Below, piece by piece: positions 3,677 to 19,218 of a DNA stretch of 20,000 nucleotides (position 1 is its first letter; each line of letters begins with the position of its first letter). The notes under the pieces are model-generated. The model saw only the letters and a program-made list of their open reading frames with translations. It made no database searches and was not told the DNA's origin. The DNA is taken from IMG/VR virus record IMGVR_UViG_3300001683_000027; one strand, given 5' to 3'. The position numbers and the translations under genes were made by a program. Source of the DNA: an uncultured virus (IMG/VR IMGVR_UViG_3300001683_000027) (taxonomy: Duplodnaviria; Heunggongvirae; Uroviricota; Caudoviricetes).

Positions 3677-5416
3677 ATGGCAGAAGAAGCTACTGGCGGG
3701 TTGAAGTTGTTTGGCTTCGAACTCAAGCGAGTTACCAAAAAGAAAGAGAATAAGAATCTCGAATCTATTGTGCCACCAGTCGATGACGACGGCGCAGGAT
3801 ATGTTACTGCATCAGGGTTACACTCAGGACAATTCCTGAATCTCGACGGCCAAGATGCCAAAGATAGTAAAGAATTAGTAAACAAATATCGCGCTGTATC
3901 GCTCCATCCGGATGTTGATATGGCAATCGAAGAAATTGTGAACGAATCAATTTCTGCTTCAGAACTTAGGTCCTCTGTCGAACTATCATTAGATGACGTT
4001 GATACTTCAGACAATATCAAAGAAGAAATTCAAGAAGAGTTCAGCCAAATTATATCGATGTTGAAGTTCAATGAACTTGGACATGACATCTTTCGATCAT
4101 GGTACATCGACGGGCGAATAGTTCACCACCTTGTTGTGGACGACAAAAATTTAAAACTCGGCATCCAAGAAATCAGACCAATAGATGCTGCAAAGATAAA
4201 GAAAGTAAAACAAGTAAAGTATAAGAAAAATCAAGAAACTGGCGTTGAGATTGTAGATAAGGTGGATGAGTTTTATGTCTTCGAAAAGACATCACCTAAA
4301 AATCCTGCGATTGCTGGTGTTTCTCACGGTGTGCAGTTATCTGTAGACGCTGTTAGTTATGTCACGTCAGGTATGTTAGACGAGACACGAAAGAAAGTTG
4401 TTTCTCATCTCCACAAATCACTCAAATCAATCAACCAGTTAAGATGGATGGAAGATTCGCTTGTCATCTATCGTCTCGCGCGCGCACCTGAAAGAAGAAT
4501 CTTTTATGTTGACGTTGGCAACATGGCGAAAGGCAAAGCAGAAGAGTACATGAAAGGTATCATGTCTCGATATAGAAACAAACTGGTATACGACGCGTCT
4601 ACTGGTGAGATGAAAGATGATCGGAAGCATATGTCTATGCTGGAAGACTTTTGGTTACCTCGACGTGAAGGTGGTAAAGGAACTGAGATCACTACACTTC
4701 CAGGTGGCGAGAATCTAGGCCAGATCGACGACATCCTATACTTCCAAAAGAAGTTATTCCGAGCACTGAACGTTCCTACTAGTAGATTAGAACAGGAAAC
4801 ACCGTTCTCGTTAGGACGTTCGTCAGAAATAACACGAGAAGAACTTAAGTTTCAGAAATTCATCGATAGACTTCGTCGACGATTCAGCAATGTATTCCTA
4901 GGCGTACTTAAAAAGCAACTGATCCTTAAAGGAATCATAACAGAACAAGACTGGAATGATTGGAAAAACGATATCTTTGTTGATTTCGTGAGAGACAATC
5001 AGTTCGCTGAACTGAAAGAACTTGAGATTTTCAGAGAAAGAATCGCAGCACTCAACGAGATTGCACCATACGTCGGAGAGTATTACACTAAAGAATGGGT
5101 CATGAAGAATATTCTTAGAATGTCCGACGATGAATACGACGAAATGGACAAGGACTTAGAGACAGAACCACCTCCAATGGGAATGGAAGAGGAAGAACCT
5201 GCACCGAAAGCAGAACCCAAATCTAAACCTGCACCGAAAGCAGAGCCCAAACCACCTAGTAAGAGTGGCGCTGGTTCCGATGCTGACAAACCTATACCAG
5301 ATAAACTCGCGCCAGAACTAGCATCTAAACTCGAAGTAGAACGATACATTCCTAACGGTGAAGAAGAACTCATTGAATCTATGATTGGATTCGTGAATAA
5401 AATGAATGAGGAATAA
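3677..5416 (+). CDS. gp20: Portal vertex protein, T4 gp20-like, with low-complexity C-terminal extension
   Basis: FRSWYIDGR, EDSLVIYRLARAPERRIFYVDVGN, EDFWLPRREGGKGTEITTLPGG, LFRALNVPTSRL, EITREELKF. Confidence 0.97.
   Translation: MAEEATGGLKLFGFELKRVTKKKENKNLESIVPPVDDDGAGYVTASGLHSGQFLNLDGQDAKDSKELVNKYRAVSLHPDVDMAIEEIVNESISASELRSSVELSLDDVDTSDNIKEEIQEEFSQIISMLKFNELGHDIFRSWYIDGRIVHHLVVDDKNLKLGIQEIRPIDAAKIKKVKQVKYKKNQETGVEIVDKVDEFYVFEKTSPKNPAIAGVSHGVQLSVDAVSYVTSGMLDETRKKVVSHLHKSLKSINQLRWMEDSLVIYRLARAPERRIFYVDVGNMAKGKAEEYMKGIMSRYRNKLVYDASTGEMKDDRKHMSMLEDFWLPRREGGKGTEITTLPGGENLGQIDDILYFQKKLFRALNVPTSRLEQETPFSLGRSSEITREELKFQKFIDRLRRRFSNVFLGVLKKQLILKGIITEQDWNDWKNDIFVDFVRDNQFAELKELEIFRERIAALNEIAPYVGEYYTKEWVMKNILRMSDDEYDEMDKDLETEPPPMGMEEEEPAPKAEPKSKPAPKAEPKPPSKSGAGSDADKPIPDKLAPELASKLEVERYIPNGEEELIESMIGFVNKMNEE
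5196..5251 (+). repeat. 26-bp direct repeat (30-bp period) encoding PAPKAEPK x2 in the portal tail
   Basis: AACCTGCACCGAAAGCAGAACCCAAA (5196-5221) vs AACCTGCACCGAAAGCAGAGCCCAAA (5226-5251), one mismatch. Confidence 0.9.
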
Positions 5417-5418
5417 GG

Positions 5419-6528
5419 GTGACACAACTTTCGCCTATCACCACTACTGCGTTTTCGTTAGCGTACACGAAAAAAGAATTCGACAGACTTTCTAAAACCT
5501 TAGAGCAAACTGTGTTGACTCCTGGACCGCAAGGTGAACAGGGACTTCGTGGTTACAAAGGCGATAAGGGTGTGAAGGGCGACCGTGGTCAGACTGGTTC
5601 GACTGGAATTCAGGGAGAAAAAGGTGATGCGGGTACAGACGGTAATGATGGTGAACAAGGTGTTACCGGCGAAGTCGGTGCACAAGGAGAATCGGGACAA
5701 CAAGGACCACAGGGAGAAAGTGGTCCGCAGGGGAAGAAAGGTGAAGCGGGAGAACAAGGAACAGTTGGTCCCGAAGGCACTATAGGTGCGCGCGGCGGGC
5801 GCGGTGAGAAAGGCGATGAGGGCGTTCCTGGAGTCGCAGGAGCAGCTGGTGCTATTGGACCATATGGAGATAAGGGTGACCAAGGAATTCCTGGTACGGC
5901 GGGATCCAGAGGCACCAAGGGTACGTCTGGTACTAAAGGTGGCAAAGGTGATGTCGGCGAGAAGGGTGATCGAGGCGATACTGGTTCACCCGGCGAGAAA
6001 GGCGATATCGGCGATCAAGGTACGCCAGCGCCAGACTACAGAAAAGAATTTGAGCAACTCGTAAAGGATTTCAATGTTCGAGTTGGAGAGAATCAAGAGT
6101 TAATAAATAAGAACGTGGATCAGCAGATTCGTAGATTGTCGAGTTTTGCCGGAGGTGGTGGTTCATATAAGATACTAGACAATGCAGATGTTGATAAAAC
6201 ACGTTTGTCTAGTGTAATCGGTGATAGCATTTTGGTGTTTGATCCTAATAAAAAGAAGTTTGTTGTTCAATCATTCTTAACAATATTAGACAGACTAAAG
6301 GCAGACTTAGAAGTGCAATACGATAAATTAATAGACGAAGTGTCCGAATCTGGATTTACTTATGTTGGTGAAGCAGTTCCAGGCACAGACAAGTCTGCGA
6401 CTACTTGGAGAATCAAACGAATAAAAGAATTTGCAGACGGCGATCTCGATATCCTTTGGGCTAACGGCACCGCCTCTTTCGATAAAACTTGGAATGATCG
6501 TGCAACATATACATACAGTGCAGATTAA
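5419..6528 (+). CDS. Collagen-like fibre protein (56 uninterrupted Gly-X-Y triplets, helical segment, small C-terminal Trp-rich domain)
   Basis: GTG start with GAGG RBS, 2 nt after the portal stop. G-X-Y run at 5524-6027. C-term YVGEAVPGTDKSATTWRIKRI...WANGTASFDKTWNDRATYTY. Confidence 0.9.
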   Translation: MTQLSPITTTAFSLAYTKKEFDRLSKTLEQTVLTPGPQGEQGLRGYKGDKGVKGDRGQTGSTGIQGEKGDAGTDGNDGEQGVTGEVGAQGESGQQGPQGESGPQGKKGEAGEQGTVGPEGTIGARGGRGEKGDEGVPGVAGAAGAIGPYGDKGDQGIPGTAGSRGTKGTSGTKGGKGDVGEKGDRGDTGSPGEKGDIGDQGTPAPDYRKEFEQLVKDFNVRVGENQELINKNVDQQIRRLSSFAGGGGSYKILDNADVDKTRLSSVIGDSILVFDPNKKKFVVQSFLTILDRLKADLEVQYDKLIDEVSESGFTYVGEAVPGTDKSATTWRIKRIKEFADGDLDILWANGTASFDKTWNDRATYTYSAD

Positions 6529-6532
6529 TTCT

Positions 6533-6540
6533 TATAAATA
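6533..6540 (+). promoter_or_regulatory. T4-type late promoter TATAAATA
   Basis: Exact consensus just after the collagen stop, upstream of the 672-aa gene. Confidence 0.88.
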
Positions 6541-6604
6541 AACGTAATACAAACTTAACTTTTTGTCATGCTAATTTGATCAACTTAATAGAGGAATATA
6601 TTCC

Positions 6605-8623
6605 ATGGCAACTATCGTCTCAGCAGCATTAATTAATGCTACAACTGAAACTGAGGTTAACATCGATGCGTCAACCAGAGACATCACACTAAATTTAGCG
6701 GGAAATCTGTCGGCAACTGGTGTTACACTTCAGGCTCTGTACTCATATTTAAAGAAAGCGTGGCGAGTCCAAGACTTCACCATCACAGGTGGTTCTAGTA
6801 CCGGTACTACAGTCACAGTCACTAATGTCACTAACGTGTTGCCAGGAATGGCAGTTGCAGTTACTGCTGGTACTGGTACTATTACCGCTGCTGCCACTGT
6901 CGTGTCTATTGATAGTGCGACAACGTTTACTTTGAGTGAAACACCTTCTCTTGCACTATCTGGTGCAACCGTACAATTTGTTAACCACTTGATCGAATAT
7001 CCATTCCCTCTGGTAGCAATTACTCCAGAACAGTTTGAATTTTCGTTTGATTGGTCTCCAGTTGATGATACTTCACGTAAGTTGATTCGTACTTCTGGTT
7101 GGAAAGAAATTAATACTGCTGGCACAATTCAAAAAGAATTTGTTGGTATTATCTCACTTGGTACCATCGACGGTGCTCAAGATGGTGCTGGTGGTGGTGA
7201 TCAAGACGTACCTTACTTTGCATTTAGAGCGTCCGGTACAATTCCTTACGGTACTACGGCAGCGTTTACGTATGCTGGTGAAATCAACGAAGCAATTCAG
7301 ACCTTCCAAATCGCCGGAACAGATAATAGACTTGCAGAACTTGCGCTCTTCGTTCGAGAAGAAGGTAAGACTTTCGGTAAGGCAGATACAGTCTCTATCG
7401 GTATTTCATCTGGTAGTGCAATTGGCGCACAGGCCTTCCGATTCCCGCTTGCAGAAGCGAATGATCTTAACTACACTGTTACAGATGCCATCATCGCGGC
7501 CGCCGACGCTAGTGGACAGTTTTACGATTTAACCGTAGGACAAGGTCCAACAATTGAGTACTTCGCAACCAATCAGTTGTCTACAACGTTCTTGGCAGCG
7601 AATAGTAAACCTGATTTAACAACACCTCGAAACTTTGGTGTGCTTATCGACGCTACTGCTGGTGATGCTACTACTACTAACGCGTCTGGATTCTTAACGC
7701 TTCAGGAATTATATTCTTGGACGAAATATCGTTTGCGTCAAACAACTACTATTGACGATGAAGGTGGCGTTGATGCTGCTGTTCAGATTGGTAATACTTC
7801 GGATGAACTATTAACGTTCGTTGGTTCTGAATTACAAACGTTGTTAGTGCAAAACGCTGACGGTGCAACAACGCCATCTGGTGTTGCAATTGAAAACTTC
7901 GCGTCAACTGATATTGGTAACTTAGCATTTAAATATAACGGTGCGGGCCCTGTTGATTTACAGAGATTCCCACTAGTTGCTTCAGGATCAATCAGTTTTA
8001 ACTCAAACCTTTCTGAAGATCCTACTGCTACTTACACCATGTATTATCAGTATACTCGTCAGTACAATGTTTCAAATATTATTTGGACACAAGTTTCTGG
8101 TTCAACCGGAACATTGACTAGAACCGTAGGCGATCTTTTACCTATAACAACCACTGGTGATTACATCGATGTAAGTGGATTTACAGATGTTAACCTAAAT
8201 GGTGTGTATTTGATTACTGCCGCGACAAGTACTAGTACTATTAATGTAACTCGTATTGATGACTTAACATTACCTGCTTCTGAAACACAAACCACTGGTG
8301 CTTTAAACTTTAGGTTCAATCCAGTTGATTCACCTGCTGCAATTATCGTACTCAAAGCGGATCAGACAACTCAGATTCGAGATAGTGTACCTCAAGTCAC
8401 AGGTGGTAGTTCTGTAACATTCGATTATGGATATACAAACGATTTAACGCCTGGTTCGGCAAACGTTGTGGAAAATCGTACAACAAACACCGATGTACCT
8501 ATCACAATTCGTGCTTCTGGAACTACTAAAGCACAATGGGTTAACACTTTAGGTACAATTGAAACAGGAAACGCAAACAACCTCTCGGTTGTAGCACCTC
8601 TTGAAAGAAACTATGCCGCGTAA
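6605..8623 (+). CDS. Putative virion structural protein (672 aa, Thr/Gly/Ala-rich, beta-rich), candidate major subunit of the inserted cassette
   Basis: AGAGGA RBS, own late promoter and downstream terminator, MA- start, two TLQxLYS motifs, C-terminal LERNY. Confidence 0.75.
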   Translation: MATIVSAALINATTETEVNIDASTRDITLNLAGNLSATGVTLQALYSYLKKAWRVQDFTITGGSSTGTTVTVTNVTNVLPGMAVAVTAGTGTITAAATVVSIDSATTFTLSETPSLALSGATVQFVNHLIEYPFPLVAITPEQFEFSFDWSPVDDTSRKLIRTSGWKEINTAGTIQKEFVGIISLGTIDGAQDGAGGGDQDVPYFAFRASGTIPYGTTAAFTYAGEINEAIQTFQIAGTDNRLAELALFVREEGKTFGKADTVSIGISSGSAIGAQAFRFPLAEANDLNYTVTDAIIAAADASGQFYDLTVGQGPTIEYFATNQLSTTFLAANSKPDLTTPRNFGVLIDATAGDATTTNASGFLTLQELYSWTKYRLRQTTTIDDEGGVDAAVQIGNTSDELLTFVGSELQTLLVQNADGATTPSGVAIENFASTDIGNLAFKYNGAGPVDLQRFPLVASGSISFNSNLSEDPTATYTMYYQYTRQYNVSNIIWTQVSGSTGTLTRTVGDLLPITTTGDYIDVSGFTDVNLNGVYLITAATSTSTINVTRIDDLTLPASETQTTGALNFRFNPVDSPAAIIVLKADQTTQIRDSVPQVTGGSSVTFDYGYTNDLTPGSANVVENRTTNTDVPITIRASGTTKAQWVNTLGTIETGNANNLSVVAPLERNYAA

Positions 8624-8639
8624 TAGATAGTATGTGAAC

Positions 8640-8665
8640 GGGGGAGTTTTCTCCCCCACTTTTTT
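8640..8665 (+). terminator. Intrinsic terminator after the 672-aa gene
   Basis: GGGGGAG-TTTT-CTCCCCC perfect 7-bp stem, then AC-TTTTTT. Confidence 0.82.
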
Positions 8666-8681
8666 ATTTAAAGGATTGATT

Positions 8682-8972
8682 ATGAAAATTAGTATTGAAC
8701 AAGCCGCAGAAATTATGTCAATGGAACCAGACGAACTTCTTATGGAAGTCCAATCTGTCGATACTGTAACAGCACACTTCGTTGCTCCTTCCGATATGTT
8801 ATACAATGATGATGGCACTGTTCAGTTTGTGGACGGTGATCCGAATCCCACATGGGAATTTGATATGACAGAGATTCTTGATCATAAAAAAGTATTGGAT
8901 GAGAAACGTCAAGCAGAAGGTGCCGAGAAATTGTCACAAGCAGTTAGAACTGCATTGGATTTAGAAGGATAA
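8682..8972 (+). CDS. Acidic 96-aa protein with excisionase/MerR-type HTH-like pattern
   Basis: Likely start is ATG 8682 after AAGGA; the track's 8634 start runs through the terminator. ISIEQAAEIMSMEPDELL...WEFDMTEI. Confidence 0.7.
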   Translation: MKISIEQAAEIMSMEPDELLMEVQSVDTVTAHFVAPSDMLYNDDGTVQFVDGDPNPTWEFDMTEILDHKKVLDEKRQAEGAEKLSQAVRTALDLEG

Positions 8973-9107
8973 ATGAGCGTAAAATTTCTCTATTACACTG
9001 AGTACACTTCGACGGGCGGTGCATTATCTACTGCTACGCTGGTTCCGTATTTGGATCAGATGTGTGTTATGTCTGATAGATGGCATGGAGTCAGATCATG
9101 GCTATAA
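8973..9107 (+). CDS. 44-aa hypothetical protein (not in ORF track)
   Basis: TAA-ATG abutment with the upstream gene, AAGGA just upstream, stop overlapping the next gene's start region. MSVKFLYYTEYTSTGGALSTATLVPYLDQMCVMSDRWHGVRSWL. Confidence 0.5.
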   Translation: MSVKFLYYTEYTSTGGALSTATLVPYLDQMCVMSDRWHGVRSWL

Positions 9108-11437
9108 CACTAGATGCTACCACTGATGGTAATTTTACCGTATTGAATAACGCAAACTCAAACGCATCTGTGAACAATTTCACTGCTGCCGGTGCTTGGA
9201 ATGATGTAAAGCGAGACACTACCTCGAAAGTTGAAGGTAATTCGTGCGTTAACTTAAGGGTAAATGCGGGTACAGGGACTCTGGTCTCATCACATTCTTC
9301 TCGAAGTTTAGAGAACACGCATTTAAGAATGTGGGTAAGAATCGGGCAAGCACTAAGCATCAACACTGGAGCAAACGGTGGAGCGCAACTTATTGCGGGA
9401 ACGTCCCAGAACCATGTCCGTTGGAATGTCTATGACTTGAACACACAGGTTGTTGTCTATAACGGATGGATGATGCTGGTCACTGACCCTCGTAAAGTTT
9501 ATGCTGGATCAAGTGGTTCTATTCCGAACCTTCTTTCCTTAACAAGTTCAGGCGTAAGAGTAAACTTTCTAGATGGTAACGGTAAAGATTTGGCAATTGG
9601 AGATCTTTTGTGGGTAGGTAATGAACTCTCAGTTGAAGGAGGAACTACCGGAGCAAGAGGTACTTTTGCTGAATGGAGTGCAGAAGATCGTACTCAGGGA
9701 TGGGGCATTCTGCGTAGCGTAGGTGGTGTGTATTACACAAATGCTGGATCAGTTTTTCAAGGTGTTGGTACAACAGATAGTTATTTTCAAGACACAAACC
9801 AGTTAATAGTATTTGAAAATTTACCAGTATCAGGTTCTCTCTACAACTGGAGACATGTTGGTAATGGAACGGGAACTAACTTTTTTCAACTGGGTAATTC
9901 ATCTGGAACAGGAACAACTAAAACAGGATCTGAAGGTGGTGTATTGCGAGCAGCCGGGAATGCTCCATTTAGAATAACAGCAATCGATGCTAATGCTTCT
10001 GCTGCATACTATGGCGTTCAAATGAACGGTACAACTGCGTTGTACAACGACCAAGTGCGTAATGTTAAAAGGAATGACGGAGGGTCTTTTATAGACGATA
10101 CAGTTGACTTTAATCAAGCGACTGGCACAGTATCTCCATTCCCAACGCCAGGACTCAACGATGCTTGGTATGTGGGGCACGATGAGATATTCTATGAAAT
10201 AAACTTAAACGTAACCACAGCAAACACTAGTGGAACATACACCACAGTGTTTGAGTATTGGGACGGCAGTGCGTGGTCTGCATTAACAGATGTTACAGAC
10301 GGAACAAACAGTCTAAGAACAACTGGAACAAATGCTATAACATACTCAAAACCCGATGATTGGGCAAAGACCACAGTAAATAGCGACAGCAGGTATTGGG
10401 TACGTTCAAGAATCTCTGTAGTTGGCACAGCAGGAACAGATCCTATAATCACGCAGGGCACTGTGGCTATGGCGGGTGATATAAACTTAGAAACATCAAC
10501 TGCCGAAATGATCAGTTGTAACATTTCTAAGATGGGTTGTATCAAAATTAGAAACGGTGCTTTCTTAACGAAATCGACTATTGATGGATCAGTTGTACCC
10601 GCAAAACATGCGGCAGTAGATTTTGGAGATACTAATCCTGCTACTAATACTGTAAGAGATTTAACCATTCAGAATTGTAATAAAGGAATATTGCTTAAAG
10701 GCACTAGTACTGGAGCAACTTCTTACACTCTTACGAACATATTTTTTAATAATAACACTGCGGATGTTAGAGTCGATTTTCCTGCGGGGGCTACGATTAC
10801 AATAAACATCAGTGGAGGTGATACACCTTCTATTGATAATGTTAATGGTAGTACTGTTACTATTGCTAATCCTGTTACTGTAACAATCTCTGGTCTTCTA
10901 GGCAATACAGAAATTTCAGTACTAGAAAACCCATCACCATATTCGTCTGCGGCCGCAGCGCCAGTTTCATTGTTTAATCAAGACGTTCTTTCAGCAGTCA
11001 CAGGTACAGACATCGAGTTAGACACTGGTGGCACTGCAAACATAACACGAATACTTAGCACAGGCACATCAAGTTTCGCGGCGATGGGTTTGACGGCCGG
11101 AGATAAAGTTCGAGTATCACAAAGAAGCGATCTTAAACTCTTCGATACGTATACATATACCGGCGGAAGTACAGTCTCAGCAATCAACGTTACTGCCGTT
11201 GCATCTTCGACTAGTAAATTACCTGCTATAATAGACTCTCCGGGCGAAACAGTCACGGTAGAGAAAGTAAATGCTTCATATTCTTTTCAGGTTGCATCGG
11301 GTGAAGTAGTAGACTTCTTGGCATTCAGAGAGGGTAGTTTGCCCGTTTACCAATTGACTCAAACAATCTTAGTATCAAACAATTCGTTTCCGTTGTCACA
11401 AACACTCGACAGAAACTTTGATGCGTTTGAAGTATAA
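9098..11437 (+). CDS. Large putative virion/adhesin-like protein (~779 aa; carbohydrate-binding-like and beta-helix-like segments; C-terminal LDRNF)
   Basis: GGAG at 9087-9090 favours ATG 9098 (MAITLD) over 9080. EYWDGSAWSAL...PDDWAKTTVN...YWVR module; LTIQNCNKGILL/YTLTNIFFNNN repeats. Confidence 0.7.
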   Translation: MAITLDATTDGNFTVLNNANSNASVNNFTAAGAWNDVKRDTTSKVEGNSCVNLRVNAGTGTLVSSHSSRSLENTHLRMWVRIGQALSINTGANGGAQLIAGTSQNHVRWNVYDLNTQVVVYNGWMMLVTDPRKVYAGSSGSIPNLLSLTSSGVRVNFLDGNGKDLAIGDLLWVGNELSVEGGTTGARGTFAEWSAEDRTQGWGILRSVGGVYYTNAGSVFQGVGTTDSYFQDTNQLIVFENLPVSGSLYNWRHVGNGTGTNFFQLGNSSGTGTTKTGSEGGVLRAAGNAPFRITAIDANASAAYYGVQMNGTTALYNDQVRNVKRNDGGSFIDDTVDFNQATGTVSPFPTPGLNDAWYVGHDEIFYEINLNVTTANTSGTYTTVFEYWDGSAWSALTDVTDGTNSLRTTGTNAITYSKPDDWAKTTVNSDSRYWVRSRISVVGTAGTDPIITQGTVAMAGDINLETSTAEMISCNISKMGCIKIRNGAFLTKSTIDGSVVPAKHAAVDFGDTNPATNTVRDLTIQNCNKGILLKGTSTGATSYTLTNIFFNNNTADVRVDFPAGATITINISGGDTPSIDNVNGSTVTIANPVTVTISGLLGNTEISVLENPSPYSSAAAAPVSLFNQDVLSAVTGTDIELDTGGTANITRILSTGTSSFAAMGLTAGDKVRVSQRSDLKLFDTYTYTGGSTVSAINVTAVASSTSKLPAIIDSPGETVTVEKVNASYSFQVASGEVVDFLAFREGSLPVYQLTQTILVSNNSFPLSQTLDRNFDAFEV

Positions 11438-11445
11438 TTCGGCAT

Positions 11446-11472
11446 GATAAATACTATAAATAGATATAAATT
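11446..11472 (+). promoter_or_regulatory. T4-type late promoter TATAAATA (11455-11462) flanked by two near-copies
   Basis: GATAAATA-C-TATAAATA-GA-TATAAATT upstream of the 840-aa gene. Confidence 0.85.
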
Positions 11473-11501
11473 AACTCAAGTTTTGTCGGAGATTTTATAA
11501 A

Positions 11502-14024
11502 ATGGCAGCATATATGCCTCATGATTTTATACAAATGCCCCCTAATAGCACAGGGCAGAAAATTCATATTGCGAAAAGGGTTGTACTTCATTTTGATACT
11601 ATTCAAACTGGCCAATCGTTCTCCGTAGGAGATAGCATATTAGGTGGCACTAGCGGTGCCACCGGAACAGTTACTGGTATTGAAACTGCTGGATATACCG
11701 CAGGAATAGGATTGTTGTGGATAAATGCCAGTACAGGTACTTGGTTAGATGATGAAGAGATTCGGGTATCTTCGGTTTGGATTGCCAGCGTTAATTTAAA
11801 CACGGATACTGAAGGTGGACCTGCAAATACTTTGGGTATTCAACATGTGAGTACTGTTGATAAAGAAAATCCTGCTAGGTCTCTACACATTACTGCTGAA
11901 GGCGCATCTCGCGTTGTTTTGCCTGCGGTGACTGTTGCGGAATCCGGAGCATTACTCACCCAGGATACTAGTGCATTATATACTCAAACATATGATTATA
12001 ATTACTCTGACCCTGATCTTTTCGATAATGAAATTCACCTAAAATATACAAATCCATTAAATTCAGCGGAATCTTGGGCGGCAGGAACGCATGTTAGTGG
12101 GGGAACTTCTGAAGCATCCGGTCATGTTAAATCGATTGATGCAGTTAATGATATCCTTACATTAACAGACGTTGTAGGAACATTTGTTGTTGGCGAAACA
12201 ATACACCATATACACTCTGGAGTTTCAACAATCGAAACTATGGATATTGCTGCCGGTGGAGTTCCCGATGTGACCGTCAATACTAGTACAAAAAGCATTG
12301 ATTTGTCAACTGGTGGAACTGTAGCCGGTGTTGGTGCAACTAGAACAACTAACACCTATTTTCCTTTAGGTAGAGGACGTTCTACCGAAGCAGTATTTGG
12401 AGTATCAATGACCGGAGCCACTCCTGGAGTGCTTAGACGTTTTGGAATGTATGATGAGTATAACGGATTCTTTTGGGAAATTTTAGAATCTACTGGACTT
12501 GACACCACATACGATCCTGCTGGCGCTCTAGACACCTTTGGAGAAACTGTTATTTGTGCGGTTCATAGAACTAATACAACAGGATCAGTCGTAAATCATA
12601 TCATAGCAGCAGTGAATTTTAATGTTAACACGTTAAATGGTACGGATGCAACAGGATTTGATCTTGATATAACTCGACCAAATCTTTTCTGGATCGATAT
12701 ACCGAATAGTGGGGCAGGTTCTGCTAAGTTCGGAGTATATAATGATGCTGGAGATAAATTGCTGGCACATACTTTCAGTTTCAATAATAGTGCTTTGTTT
12801 TCGGGTGCCCCCATTCCAGCATCTGCTTTACCTATTAGAGAAGAGGTTAGAAATTTCGGAGCAGGAGTTACTAGTCAAGAAACCATATTAAAGGTGGGCA
12901 AAGTTACAGTATATACGAATGAAAATGCTTCACGATATACGAACGCCCAGACGTTCCTTCATGGAAATGTTCAAAATAGACATGCTATGATGGATGACAC
13001 ACGAGGTGAAGTTCCTTTAATTGCAGTTCGTGCTGAACGGTTATTAAATAGTATTGTAAACAGAACTTATTCTAAACTACACGATATGAATGTTAATCTC
13101 CAAGACGAAAGAATAGATAGATTTTTTGGAGGCGTTATTGCTACTGATGCGATACCTATGGTTAATCATAATTTGTTGGACGGTGATAAGGTTCAGTATC
13201 AAGATGGTGTAGGGGCAACGGTAACCGGATTAGACGATCATCAATACTATTATGTCATTAAAATCGATGCTGATAATATAAAATTAGCATCTACTTATGA
13301 ACTGTCAAGAGTACCAACACCCTTAACAATATCAGGTGGAGTAGTCACTAATAAATTGGTTGAAGCACCAGGCACAGTAGTAACATTGCGGATCCGTAAA
13401 AATTCCGATATTGCAGACGCGACTTGGTCTAGACATAATACAGTCAGATCAGCATCTTCGTGGAGTCAAAACGCAACTGGTTTCAGATTGTCTGAAAACG
13501 TTGTAGTTGCGACCGGAGGAACAAATTATGTTGCTGGAGATATATTAGAACTCGATTCAGGAATAGTTAACCATAGAGAAGCGGTGTTAGAAGTAATTGA
13601 AGTATCAGCAGGAGCAATAGTTAAAGTACGTATTCTACCTTTGACGGGAGGACATCTATTAGAAACTGATGGTGTATCAAATGCTAATTATGGTTCATAT
13701 AATGGAAAAATTAGTGGTGCGATAGGACATAAGGCAAGTGGTGTTGGGTTCAGCGCATGCGCGGGTGCGGGTGCTACGTTCTCTGTATCGGTTAAATGGG
13801 GCCATGGGTTCTGGTGGACGAACTTTTATAAATCTTGGGGTGAATATAATTTCGGAGGAAGTGATATTCTATCTGCAAGGGTCAACCAAGATATAGCATT
13901 TTGTTACGGACATTCTGATAATAGTGAAGAAAACTTACAAAACTTGACTGTCACAGGCCAAGTCTACCAACCAGGATATAACGCGAAGGTTCAACTATCA
14001 TTAAATTGGCAAGAGATACAGTAG
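11502..14024 (+). CDS. Large putative virion protein (840 aa) with lectin-like core and small beta-barrel repeats
   Basis: GGAG RBS. Core RTTNTYF...RRFGMYDEYNGFFWE...LNGTDATGFDLD...WIDIPNSGAGSAKFG...LPIREE; GGTS repeats; HNLLDGDKVQY...GL...YYYVIKIDADNIKLAST; GGTNYVAGD. Confidence 0.7.
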   Translation: MAAYMPHDFIQMPPNSTGQKIHIAKRVVLHFDTIQTGQSFSVGDSILGGTSGATGTVTGIETAGYTAGIGLLWINASTGTWLDDEEIRVSSVWIASVNLNTDTEGGPANTLGIQHVSTVDKENPARSLHITAEGASRVVLPAVTVAESGALLTQDTSALYTQTYDYNYSDPDLFDNEIHLKYTNPLNSAESWAAGTHVSGGTSEASGHVKSIDAVNDILTLTDVVGTFVVGETIHHIHSGVSTIETMDIAAGGVPDVTVNTSTKSIDLSTGGTVAGVGATRTTNTYFPLGRGRSTEAVFGVSMTGATPGVLRRFGMYDEYNGFFWEILESTGLDTTYDPAGALDTFGETVICAVHRTNTTGSVVNHIIAAVNFNVNTLNGTDATGFDLDITRPNLFWIDIPNSGAGSAKFGVYNDAGDKLLAHTFSFNNSALFSGAPIPASALPIREEVRNFGAGVTSQETILKVGKVTVYTNENASRYTNAQTFLHGNVQNRHAMMDDTRGEVPLIAVRAERLLNSIVNRTYSKLHDMNVNLQDERIDRFFGGVIATDAIPMVNHNLLDGDKVQYQDGVGATVTGLDDHQYYYVIKIDADNIKLASTYELSRVPTPLTISGGVVTNKLVEAPGTVVTLRIRKNSDIADATWSRHNTVRSASSWSQNATGFRLSENVVVATGGTNYVAGDILELDSGIVNHREAVLEVIEVSAGAIVKVRILPLTGGHLLETDGVSNANYGSYNGKISGAIGHKASGVGFSACAGAGATFSVSVKWGHGFWWTNFYKSWGEYNFGGSDILSARVNQDIAFCYGHSDNSEENLQNLTVTGQVYQPGYNAKVQLSLNWQEIQ

Positions 14025-14025
14025 C

Positions 14026-14631
14026 ATGTTTGTGGGCAATTACGGGAATTATTGGCAGTGGTTACCTGCTGATGAGAGTGGTTATCCTGGCCAGAAAGTG
14101 GCATTCGACGGTGCAACAAGAACCATCTATGTAAACGAGGGTGTTTCCGAACTTGATACAAAGATTGACTTGTACTCTGCATGGAAAGAATGGGTGTTGG
14201 CATCTACGGAAGCACCATCCCCTATTGTATGGGCAAAAGCATTTACTGCTATTGGTGGGGACCCGATTACTGCTGGTCAGGATCTAGGTACTACCTACTT
14301 CTTAGAGAACGGTTGGAGAATACAACCTATTCCATATGGAACGTCATACACACTGACTATAACAGGTAACCTATATACTAGAGAAGCCGGTGAAACACCG
14401 TTTCGATTTGCGAATGGTGTTTCGGTATCATTGGTTAGATCCAACATCGTTGAATTAATTACGGTAGAAGCACTTGCGGTGGCAATTACACCAGATGATG
14501 TTACTGCGATCTCTAATGCAGCAGCAGATAAAGTTTGGGATGAACTACTTTCAGATCATACTATTGCAGGATCAGCTGGTACTAAACTGAAAGACAACTT
14601 GAAGAAAACACAATATATTGCAAGAATATAA
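14026..14631 (+). CDS. 201-aa hypothetical virion-associated protein
   Basis: Starts 1 nt after the upstream TAG. KVAFDGATRTIYV...IDLYSAWKEW...YFLENGWRI; C-terminal ADKVWDELLSDHTIAGSAGTKL. Confidence 0.7.
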   Translation: MFVGNYGNYWQWLPADESGYPGQKVAFDGATRTIYVNEGVSELDTKIDLYSAWKEWVLASTEAPSPIVWAKAFTAIGGDPITAGQDLGTTYFLENGWRIQPIPYGTSYTLTITGNLYTREAGETPFRFANGVSVSLVRSNIVELITVEALAVAITPDDVTAISNAAADKVWDELLSDHTIAGSAGTKLKDNLKKTQYIARI

Positions 14632-14644
14632 AAGGAGATCCATT

Positions 14645-14839
14645 ATGGACGACAATACTGACGTAGAAAATATCATAACAAACATCGGTGCCAAGAACTT
14701 TACCGCGGCCGAATCCAACTTTAATAGCGCATTGGACGATAGAGTCCAGATTGCTCTAGATCAAGCGAAGGTTAGAATCGCATCTAAAATTTTCGATGAC
14801 ACAGCGGTTGAGACCGAAGAAGACGAAGATCAATCTTGA
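14645..14839 (+). CDS. gp67: Prohead core protein, T4 gp67-like (64 aa)
   Basis: AAGGAG RBS favours ATG 14645. IITNIGAKNFTAAESNFNSALDDRVQIALDQAKVRIASKIF plus acidic tail matches the gp67 pattern; position before gp21. Confidence 0.75.
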   Translation: MDDNTDVENIITNIGAKNFTAAESNFNSALDDRVQIALDQAKVRIASKIFDDTAVETEEDEDQS

Positions 14840-18242: not shown

Positions 18243-18250
18243 TATAAATA
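18243..18250 (+). promoter_or_regulatory. T4-type late promoter TATAAATA
   Basis: Exact consensus immediately after the gp23 terminator. Confidence 0.8.
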
Positions 18251-18310: not shown

Positions 18311-18394
18311 ATGACTATCTATACCCACAAGCACCACATCATCCCACGTTACTCAAGATCCATAAGTTTCTGTTCTATCAGTTGCTTCTTGTAA
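18311..18394 (+). pseudogene. 5' remnant of an HNH homing endonuclease gene
   Basis: ATG 18311 gives MTIYTHKHHIIPR, a typical HNH opening (HHIIP[RK]). Similarity ends where the stop codon of the convergent minus-strand gene lies (18349). Confidence 0.7.
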
Positions 18395-18669
18395 ACCTTT
18401 CGTTTCATCTCACTTTGCAAATACTCATATCTAGATTTTTCTGCGGATATAAGAGGCGTGTTGCTCAGTTCTTTGTTCCTGTAATGAGCAATGACCTCGG
18501 CGTCCTTCTTGATATCTAACCCGATGATCTCGGCCTTTAGTTCAAACTCGGCACTTCTCGCAACGTGTCTGGCATCCAGGAACAAGAATGCCGCAAACAT
18601 CGATCCGAACAGCGTGAGTATAGTCAAAACAGTGGTGGCCAAATTAAGAAGATGTTTTTCGTCTTTCAT
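18349..18669 (-). CDS. 106-aa protein with one N-terminal transmembrane helix and a charged helical tail
   Basis: LLNLATTVLTILTLFGSMFAAFLFL hydrophobic stretch; own late promoter on the minus strand. Confidence 0.75.
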   Translation of the reverse strand: MKDEKHLLNLATTVLTILTLFGSMFAAFLFLDARHVARSAEFELKAEIIGLDIKKDAEVIAHYRNKELSNTPLISAEKSRYEYLQSEMKRKVYKKQLIEQKLMDLE

Positions 18670-18695
18670 TTTAGTATATCGATGAGTTGTTATTG

Positions 18696-18703
18696 TATTT
18701 ATA
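18696..18703 (-). promoter_or_regulatory. T4-type late promoter TATAAATA (minus strand)
   Basis: Plus strand reads TATTTATA, 26 nt upstream of the 106-aa gene start. Confidence 0.8.
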
Positions 18704-18709
18704 CTGTTA

Positions 18710-18722
18710 AATCAATGACTTA
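18710..18722 (+). promoter_or_regulatory. IHF consensus site WATCAANNNNTTR
   Basis: AATCAATGACTTA matches exactly; located in the divergent intergenic region. Confidence 0.5.
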
Positions 18723-18729
18723 GTGAGTA

Positions 18730-18758
18730 TTGTGGTTTTAGACGCAATCGACGATAAT
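18730..18758 (+). promoter_or_regulatory. Possible sigma70-like early promoter
   Basis: TTGTGG-N17-GATAAT upstream of the small-ORF cluster; imperfect match. Confidence 0.3.
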
Positions 18759-18797
18759 AGTTATATAACGAATTAGAGAAGAAAGTAAGGAAACGAC

Positions 18798-18977
18798 ATG
18801 ATGAATAAGTTGCCTAAGATCACTAGATGCACCAGACACGCATACGAGACATACTGGCAATCAAGCAACCTCTATTGTCACCAAGGAACGTCGACTCAAC
18901 ACACCCATAACCGGTGTACGAAATGCGACCAGACAGCCTACCGGAACAATGAAACAGGCAAACTCTTATATCGCTAA
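18798..18977 (+). CDS. 59-aa putative zinc-binding protein (CxxH...CxxC); not in ORF track
   Basis: TAAGGA RBS. MMNKLPKITRCTRHAYETYWQSSNLYCHQGTSTQHTHNRCTKCDQTAYRNNETGKLLYR. Confidence 0.65.
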   Translation: MMNKLPKITRCTRHAYETYWQSSNLYCHQGTSTQHTHNRCTKCDQTAYRNNETGKLLYR

Positions 18978-18990
18978 CCACTAACCAATC

Positions 18991-19218
18991 ATGATTGAAA
19001 TCAGCAAACAAGGTAAGCCGCTCAATGTCACCGTCATTACCGACGATGGGAAAAGAGTTGCCACAATAAGAAGAGAACGAGCAAAAACATTCTTGCTTGT
19101 CCTTCACACCGGAGCTCGTCCTTTCACTAGCGTGATGTTCAACACCCCGACTAACTGTACTGTTTTCACTACTCGCAACAAAGCAATCAAAGAAGCTTTA
19201 ACCCAAATTCAACAATAA
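18991..19218 (+). CDS. 75-aa hypothetical protein
   Basis: Tightly packed co-oriented ORF; no clear Shine-Dalgarno. Confidence 0.6.
   Translation: MIEISKQGKPLNVTVITDDGKRVATIRRERAKTFLLVLHTGARPFTSVMFNTPTNCTVFTTRNKAIKEALTQIQQ

Follow-up and report, generated by a model that had tools for sequence, protein, structure and literature searches.

What is built by the 9.2-kb block of genes that lies between the portal gene and the gp67-like prohead gene of an uncultured T4-like phage (IMGVR_UViG_3300001683_000027)? The stretch of DNA analysed, called the window below, is 20,000 nucleotides (nt) long and holds a T4-like head and tail region with genes for terminase, sheath, tube, portal, protease, scaffold and major head protein. 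Seven co-oriented open reading frames (ORFs) occupy positions 5419-14631 of the window. The closest major head protein in GenBank is that of phage C48C1 (64%), in which portal and protease are separated by two small genes only. The block is an accessory, exchangeable cassette. It probably builds a horn of the type carried by Syn5 (Voetvirus syn5, a T7-like podovirus), that is, an extra virion filament, most likely on a vertex of the head, and the probability of this reading is put at roughly 0.6. Judged by sequence, proteins A and D of the block and the C-terminal domain of protein B are homologous to Syn5 gp53, gp55 and gp54, respectively. The features of the block and its borders are the following (lengths in amino acids, aa).

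3677-5416, portal protein gp20 (phrog_213, E 1e-191)
5419-6528, + strand, collagen-like protein, 369 aa (PF01391, E 5.7e-27)
6533-6540, + strand, T4-type late promoter motif TATAAATA ahead of A
6605-8623, + strand, protein A, 672 aa, Syn5 gp53 homologue (tblastn E 2e-28)
8640-8657, + strand, hairpin with T-run resembling an intrinsic terminator, after gene A
8682-8972, + strand, acidic protein of 96 aa, its ATG preceded by an AAAGGA site; 16 distinct sequences in its family
8973-9107, + strand, ORF of 44 aa, not conserved
9104-11437, + strand, protein B, 777 aa (785 from an ATG at 9080), Syn5 gp54 C-terminal domain behind a variable body
11455-11462, + strand, late promoter motif TATAAATA ahead of C
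11502-14024, + strand, protein C, 840 aa, of a virion-structural family (phrog_1645, E 6e-27; phrog_5838, E 5.5e-8)
14026-14631, + strand, protein D, 201 aa, Syn5 gp55 homologue, whose stop codon is the right edge of the swappable block
Ending at 14839, gp67-like prohead gene (phrog_1064, E 4.6e-5), followed by protease, scaffold and major head genes

A preliminary description of this DNA had placed seven co-oriented ORFs between portal and gp67, with the first and the last abutting their neighbours. All seven are present, and the gaps are 2 bases (portal stop to first ORF) and 13 bases (last ORF to gp67-like start). Only six are conserved, since the 44-aa ORF has no homologue.

The relationship with Syn5, in which gp53 and gp54 are reported to form the horn (Raytcheva et al. 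2014), is clearest in A. This protein is about 32-33% identical to gp53, which was the best of the 6 matches given by A among 50,697 GenBank phage records; another gp53-like query gave 7. Their alignment runs from end to end, interrupted by insertions, and takes in residues 1-56, 93-520 and 591-671 of A. D matches gp55 with a BLASTP E of 7.9e-7 in a small database and a family profile E of 6e-30, and it likewise lies downstream on the same strand. For B, family profiles were searched against 5,066 distinct ORFs (loci L001-L091 and the window). Iterative profile searching that started from the C-terminal 123 residues of Syn5 gp54 settled on 43 of these ORFs, including B, with one or two per cassette. 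When Syn5 and S-TIP28 were held out, a profile grown from B recovered their gp54 genes (E 1.6e-6 and 4.1e-6, scaled to Z=1e5 as in all held-out tests) and no others among 227 ORFs. The gp54 domain of B is interrupted by an insertion. The gp54 body (residues 1-500) has no BLAST match to B, and Syn5 gp54 is absent from the family of the B N-terminal region (63 members, E 1.7e-32). Syn5 and S-TIP28 gp54 likewise have only the C-terminal 87 aa in common. B has no direct match in GenBank phages, and searches of the ESM Atlas with B and C gave unnamed viral clusters only. A profile match of B to gp30, the turret base of HFTV1 (8qpg, E 0.044, compositional bias 6.2), is treated as chance. Neither A, B, D nor Syn5 gp53-55 belongs to a Pfam or PHROG family, which means that annotation misses the Syn5 horn genes. 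At an E of 0.01, no PHROG family, including those of tails, baseplates and Hoc/Soc proteins, was matched by A, B, D, the 96-aa protein or the 44-aa ORF. The preliminary description would have been refuted by relocated baseplate or tail-fibre genes, and the PHROGs gave only generic Gly-X-Y matches of this kind. Sequence searches of the PDB with profiles of A, C and D gave nothing credible.

The three Syn5-like genes travel together. Viral contigs were scanned, giving 388 stretches with a relative of A and 131 with a relative of D, and 80 of each were fetched. Co-occurrence was counted only in loci selected by A, which avoids circularity; these were 107 loci with 98 distinct A proteins. Forty-one had at least 6 kb downstream and at least 3.5 kb upstream of A and were counted, and the other 57 were excluded because their flanks were short. 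D adjoins A in 41/41 loci, where a neighbour is a gene within 7 kb of an A-type gene. B is near A in 35/41 by its C-terminal profile, and the remaining 6 carry a B-type gene by related profiles. C is found in 13/41 and the collagen gene in 12/41, all of the latter T4-like, and the order collagen-A-96aa-B-C-D occurs in 12/41. By these counts A-B-D is the core, to which the T4-like version typically adds the collagen gene, the 96-aa gene and C. Wherever a locus holds gp20, gp21 and A (33/33), A lies between the other two, a count that includes redundant contigs and covers 17 distinct alleles besides the window. The expectation that homologues co-occur and keep their place beside gp20 is thus borne out, and with the promoters described below so is the wider proposal of a late-regulated, multi-subunit appendage module at a conserved position.

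Relatives of A are numerous, with 477 representatives at 50% identity (E at most 0.001) among 1.84 billion representatives searched, against 7 of the 50,697 GenBank phage records. The triad of A, B and D is not confined to T4-like contexts but is seen in T7-like and siphovirus-like ones too, with genes of podovirus, siphovirus and myovirus type. It often stands beside terminase, portal or capsid genes (L130, L146, L150, L153, L166, L167, L168 and L172). Its presence with all three tail types, often among head genes, fits a part that is independent of the tail type. Cultured carriers are PANV1, Panino and S-TIP28. The order B-A-(136-175 aa gene)-D was also seen in cellular-looking loci of candidate phyla radiation (CPR) type (L188:7419-13829, L176-L179, L181, L186 and L187), in records titled Woesebacteria, Daviesbacteria or Patescibacteria and in some titled Gammaproteobacteria. 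In L188 a TatC gene (PF00902, E 1e-39) and an ORF that looks tatA-like to the eye come after the triad, SH3 and dCache genes lie close to it, and L181 has PilB/PilC-type genes. Weak domain-level matches aside, no phage hallmark was found among the scanned neighbours of these loci.

A second line of evidence is the sharing of domains among the three proteins. Two matches stand out between trimmed deep profiles. One links the N-terminus of A with that of D (score 37.8, E 1.4e-5, probability 80%), where 30 column shuffles reached no more than 17.8; the other links the C-terminal domain of A with the C-terminal part of B (score 37.7, E 1.2e-6, probability 91%), where the shuffles reached no more than 16.7. 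Ten other profile pairings scored at most 14.9. Only the trimmed deep profiles gave a clear result; with shallow ones the match of D to A was weak (E 0.047 and 0.0038). The large proteins had been described as rich in G, T, S and N and as sharing motifs. Their composition agrees with this (37, 41 and 35% in the three large proteins, against 29% in gp23 and 20% in gp20), whereas the common domains are visible in profiles only, the best E in direct BLAST among the large proteins being 0.024. Such sharing suggests that D forms the base of a filament, A its repeating unit and B its cap. The earlier labels of major subunit, tip and adaptor suit the 672-, 777- and 201-aa proteins, respectively.

The AlphaFold model of A has a predicted local distance difference test (pLDDT) score of 90.6 and a predicted template modelling (pTM) score of 0.82. 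It is composed of an N-terminal core without a clear structural match, two inserted small beta-barrels (55-132 and 484-580) and a split C-terminal domain that resembles immunoglobulin (Ig) or CnaB folds. The sequence terminates in ERNY. The inserts align in VIA-align with 8eci (Z 8.5, root-mean-square deviation (rmsd) 2.4, 72 aa) and 4hiz (Z 8.3, rmsd 2.7, 83 aa). The C-terminal domain was compared with the Ig/CnaB-like domains that link subunits in sortase or chaperone-usher pilins; its scores against Ig-like folds, those of pilins and S-layer proteins among them, are Z 5.7-7.8, a range typical of common arrangements. In Foldseek, the model gave template modelling (TM) scores of at most 0.12 against the PDB, with the N-terminal core searched only within the whole model. 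Against BFVD the query TM was below 0.2; rank 9 was Syn5 A4ZRD5 (TM 0.19; 622 aa, the length of gp54), which is taken as a lead only. Covariation in 221 sequences of A gave an N-to-C coupling between residues 130 and 480, which ranks 20 overall with a z of 9.9 among 24,780 N-C pairs. The model of D has a pLDDT of 65.6, and its best structural match has a Z of 3.0. A complex prediction of A with D (19-180), run without folded controls, scored 0.00 in two runs.

Together with these data, the following assembly can be proposed. D, with an N-terminal "socket" only, would anchor on the finished capsid. A, with a socket and a C-terminal Ig-like "plug", would stack head to tail and, having its own promoter and terminator, would be the high-copy subunit. 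B, with a plug and a variable body, would cap the tip, and C and the collagen-like protein would be extra decorations of the T4-like versions. We infer from this scheme a stacked filament on the head that adheres to surfaces. Its most likely use would be reversible attachment to polymers on host or particle surfaces, which would aid adsorption in dilute water and be dispensable for infection. B and C are the least conserved genes of the block (26-56% against the window), as is expected of binding parts.

The block is regulated as a late gene group. The motif TATAAATA occurs 6 times in the window against 0.94 expected, and 0/200 shuffles reached at least 6. Counted within 160 bases upstream of the gene in distinct T4-like alleles, it precedes A in 50/54 and C in 33/43, and it precedes B in 0/37, D in 1/46, the collagen gene in 0/44 and the 96-aa gene in 0/29. 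A hairpin with a T-run follows A in 25/33 T4-like alleles, a count made without a control run. Two internal promoters and a terminator had been claimed, with wiring into the late programme; the elements are located at 6533, 11455 and 8640-8657, and the conservation of the motif ahead of A and C supports the wiring. The layout of promoter, A and terminator fits a high-copy shaft and a low-copy tip.

The block is also accessory and exchanged between phages. Among the 80 best gp21 relatives, 20 have the cassette at the site, 49 lack it there and 11 are too short; by distinct gp21 sequence (n=45) these numbers are 14, 25 and 6. Two contigs, L191 and L192, match the window at 97.7% identity from position 14632 on, one base past the stop of D, and have no DNA identity to it upstream. 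At the same site they carry a PANV1-like allele (L191:2-1911 and L192:2-814), which is 65% identical to gp105, 60% to gp107 and 27% to D of the window. For 22 loci, the topology of gp21 is rejected for A as well as for D (p-AU 4e-43 and 1e-103), in an approximately unbiased (AU) test of 2,000 replicates, which the program called too few, and with a gp21 tree that has several weak nodes. In agreement with the earlier statement that no integrase or transposase is visible, scans of the seven ORFs against PHROGs and Pfam gave no mobility enzyme (integrase, transposase or homing endonuclease). Exchange is therefore most simply explained by recombination in the conserved flanks. That near-identical phages differ in their alleles, and relatives in whether they have the block at all, suggests selection for a trait such as host attachment.

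Several points weigh against a Syn5-type horn. This phage is known from its sequence alone, in which the late promoters and the virion-structural annotation of the C family are indirect signs that the proteins are in the virion. Antibodies to the Syn5 horn proteins reportedly did not block infection. The match between B and gp54 spans only about 90 residues. In the reverse held-out test, a gp54 profile built without the window and its close relatives found B weakly (E 0.11, no hit, and 1.1e-4 in three rounds), with B as its sole match among the 73 ORFs of the window. The patches around the 130-480 coupling of A are not enriched in N-C couplings (0 against 1.3 expected, and 4 against 2.9). Sugar binding by B or C is backed by no solved structure or Pfam family, and the lectin role once suggested for the tips is not supported; a ConA-like lectin match of C (0.78) is a lead only. 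The transmission electron microscopy (TEM) passages available for Maribacter phage Panino, a carrier of the triad, mention no horn (PMC11590407). In the main text of the PANV1 paper, as far as it was accessible, there is no passage on mass spectrometry and no mention of gp104 or gp105 (PMC9239159).

These points have to be set against three other explanations. The same proteins may build a filament on the neck, tail or baseplate, such as a whisker or accessory fibre, which we consider unlikely. According to the available text on the T4-like cyanophage Bellamy, its head fibres resemble its baseplate fibres (PMC5646251). The collagen gene directly abuts the portal gene without a promoter motif of its own, and tail-fibre families are among the PHROGs hit by its Gly-X-Y runs. 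In L087, L112, L134 and L142 the triad comes after genes for tails or fibres, which favours a neck or tail site and speaks against a head filament. Against such a site, A, B and D match no tail or baseplate PHROG, the triad accompanies all three tail types, and the sole characterised system sits on the head, the assignment of its proteins being a reported one. Independent decorations, with a two-protein horn (A and B), a hexon knob (D) and separate capsid fibres (C and collagen) in place of a base-shaft-tip stack, are rather improbable. This explanation agrees with the negative patch test, with the optional nature of C and collagen and with the C relatives in cyanophages that have no gp53 match. 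It also agrees with the assignment of Syn5 gp55 to the hexon knob (densities I/J), a further point against a horn base, yet in the available part of that paper the assignment is a secondary-structure prediction and no model was built (PMC4102127). A gp55-like gene accompanies the gp53-like gene in all 41 loci across unrelated capsids, whereas the Syn5 knob gene gp58 is found in 1/41, Syn5 itself, and the 12,029 distinct ORFs from the loci contain no further copy of it. The N-terminal profile that D has in common with A also argues against separate decorations.

A cassette that is not bound to the virion but is cargo with a role inside or on the surface of the infected cell, for example as a host-surface filament like the CPR copy, is very improbable. 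The CPR-type loci, with B-A-D beside tatA/tatC, SH3 and pilus genes and no phage hallmark among the neighbours scanned, would agree with it. The conserved late promoters, the placement inside the head operon, the N-termini without a visible signal peptide and the annotation of Syn5 gp53 and gp54 as structural argue against it. A Syn5-type horn on the head remains the preferred reading. A wider extension of it is tentative and somewhat doubtful. In this extension, the Syn5 horn would be a widespread plug-and-socket filament on unrelated capsids, with gp55 as the horn base and not a hexon knob, gp53 as the polymer, gp54 as a swappable tip and a core fold that matches no solved structure. It would be a host-adhesion module swapped between near-identical T4-like phages at the portal-gp67 hot spot, and CPR bacteria would have adopted it for a surface filament next to the Tat exporter.

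The remaining genes of the block are less uniform. The collagen-like protein has one run of 56 Gly-X-Y triplets (residues 36-203), which would span about 48 nm as a straight triple helix, and its PHROG matches, tail-fibre families included, concern Gly-X-Y only. Its C-terminal region is conserved in a family of 19 sequences, all from T4-like cassettes. Because it is present in so few of the gp53-like loci and is not core, it probably does not form the filament's stalk, the role proposed for it at first. In L184 (6218-6493), its last 70-90 aa form a stand-alone 91-aa gene directly 5' of a B-type and an A gene. The 96-aa protein is conserved in T4-like cassettes only and has no Pfam match. That it acts as an assembly factor is a guess. 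The chaperone that had been proposed among the proteins of the block is not supported. The 44-aa ORF may be a remnant or no gene, and jackhmmer recovers only itself among the 5,066 ORFs. It was also considered as a frameshifted start of B and rejected, because B has its own start, as do its relatives. In relatives this slot is empty or holds unrelated genes of 139-156 aa. Between the 96-aa gene and B, those of L008 (12702-13133), L032, L071 and L088 look by eye like SPOUT-type methyltransferases, with no Pfam hit. Those of L055 (4961-5431), L058 and L069 are Cys-rich, with PF03692 at E 6e-4, below the cut-off.

Protein C belongs to a family found in 31 phage records, mostly cyanophage "virion structural protein", which is also the annotation of phrog_1645, and it matches 80 aa of phrog_460 as well. 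It is an optional partner of A-B-D. A segment of 70 aa in C (residues 546-614) recurs in the tail sheath of L009-L011 (L009:3710-6373), which is 887 aa long and carries it as an insertion, and in some A proteins of 950 aa. By its distribution, this segment appears to be a mobile surface domain common to virion proteins.

Outside the block, the portal protein has a C-terminal tail rich in Pro, Lys and Glu (window 5083-5416), past its PHROG match (residues 9-510 of 579). Among gp21 relatives the portal tends to be long beside a cassette, and many portals without one have 500-535 aa, some 551-555. The usual next genes are absent 3' of gp23. There, a gene for a 106-aa protein that is hydrophobic near its N-terminus lies on the reverse strand, with its own TATAAATA (18696, minus strand), followed by small unmatched ORFs; the sites of this region are 18243-18250, 18349-19107 and 18696-18703. 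Bases 18704-18783 occur twice more, in L191 and L013, and resemble a repeated promoter element.

The block can be compared with several known systems. In the literature within coverage, which left out most subscription journals, no report on this cassette or on horn homologues in T4-like phages was found. The metagenomic phage Rctr197k (KX853510) has C-like, collagen-C-terminus-like, A, B and D genes in one cluster (genes 176-180). It differs in that the genes are uncharacterised and in another order, and its collagen-like gene, Rctr197k_177, is weakly similar to the last 60 aa of the collagen protein (E 0.004) with no Gly-X-Y run flagged. PANV1 (Paraglaciecola Antarctic GD virus 1, MW805361) is a cultured myovirus with T4-type annotations, in which gp104, gp105 and gp107 are of B, A and D type. 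In contrast to the window, its distant allele lies among replication genes, with no collagen gene, C or 96-aa gene within 16 kb, and the accessible text of its paper reports no horn or proteome (PMC9239159). According to the part of its paper available, Bellamy bears clustered fibres on the head vertex distal to the tail (PMC5646251), and thus resembles the proposed arrangement as a T4-like myovirus with an appendage at that place, but its fibres are branched and resemble tail fibres. Bellamy was not among the 6 and 7 tblastn matches of the gp53-like queries, in a collection whose inclusion of the Bellamy genome is unverified. In HFTV1, the turrets sit on hexamers, as stated in the accessible part of the HFTV1 preprint.

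The system had been thought undescribed, which no longer applies, as its three core genes are homologues of Syn5 genes 53-55. The order and strand are the same, with gp53 represented in full length, gp54 by its C-terminal domain, and gp55. The Syn5 horn stands on the vertex opposite the tail and is added after the tail, according to the available text of two papers (PMC4238041, PMC10575957). In contrast to Syn5, the phage studied here is a T4-like myovirus; A is 226 aa longer with its two inserted beta-barrels; the body of B does not match that of gp54; the collagen gene, the 96-aa gene and C are added; gp58, gp52, gp56 and gp57 have no homologue; and the block is inserted between gp20 and gp67 under T4-type late promoters. 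Cultured carriers make it possible to test structure and function, and where gp55 sits, in phages other than Syn5. The Syn5 horn has so far been a curiosity of one phage without a known use; here its genes are a common accessory module, and such filaments may be common among uncultured phages.

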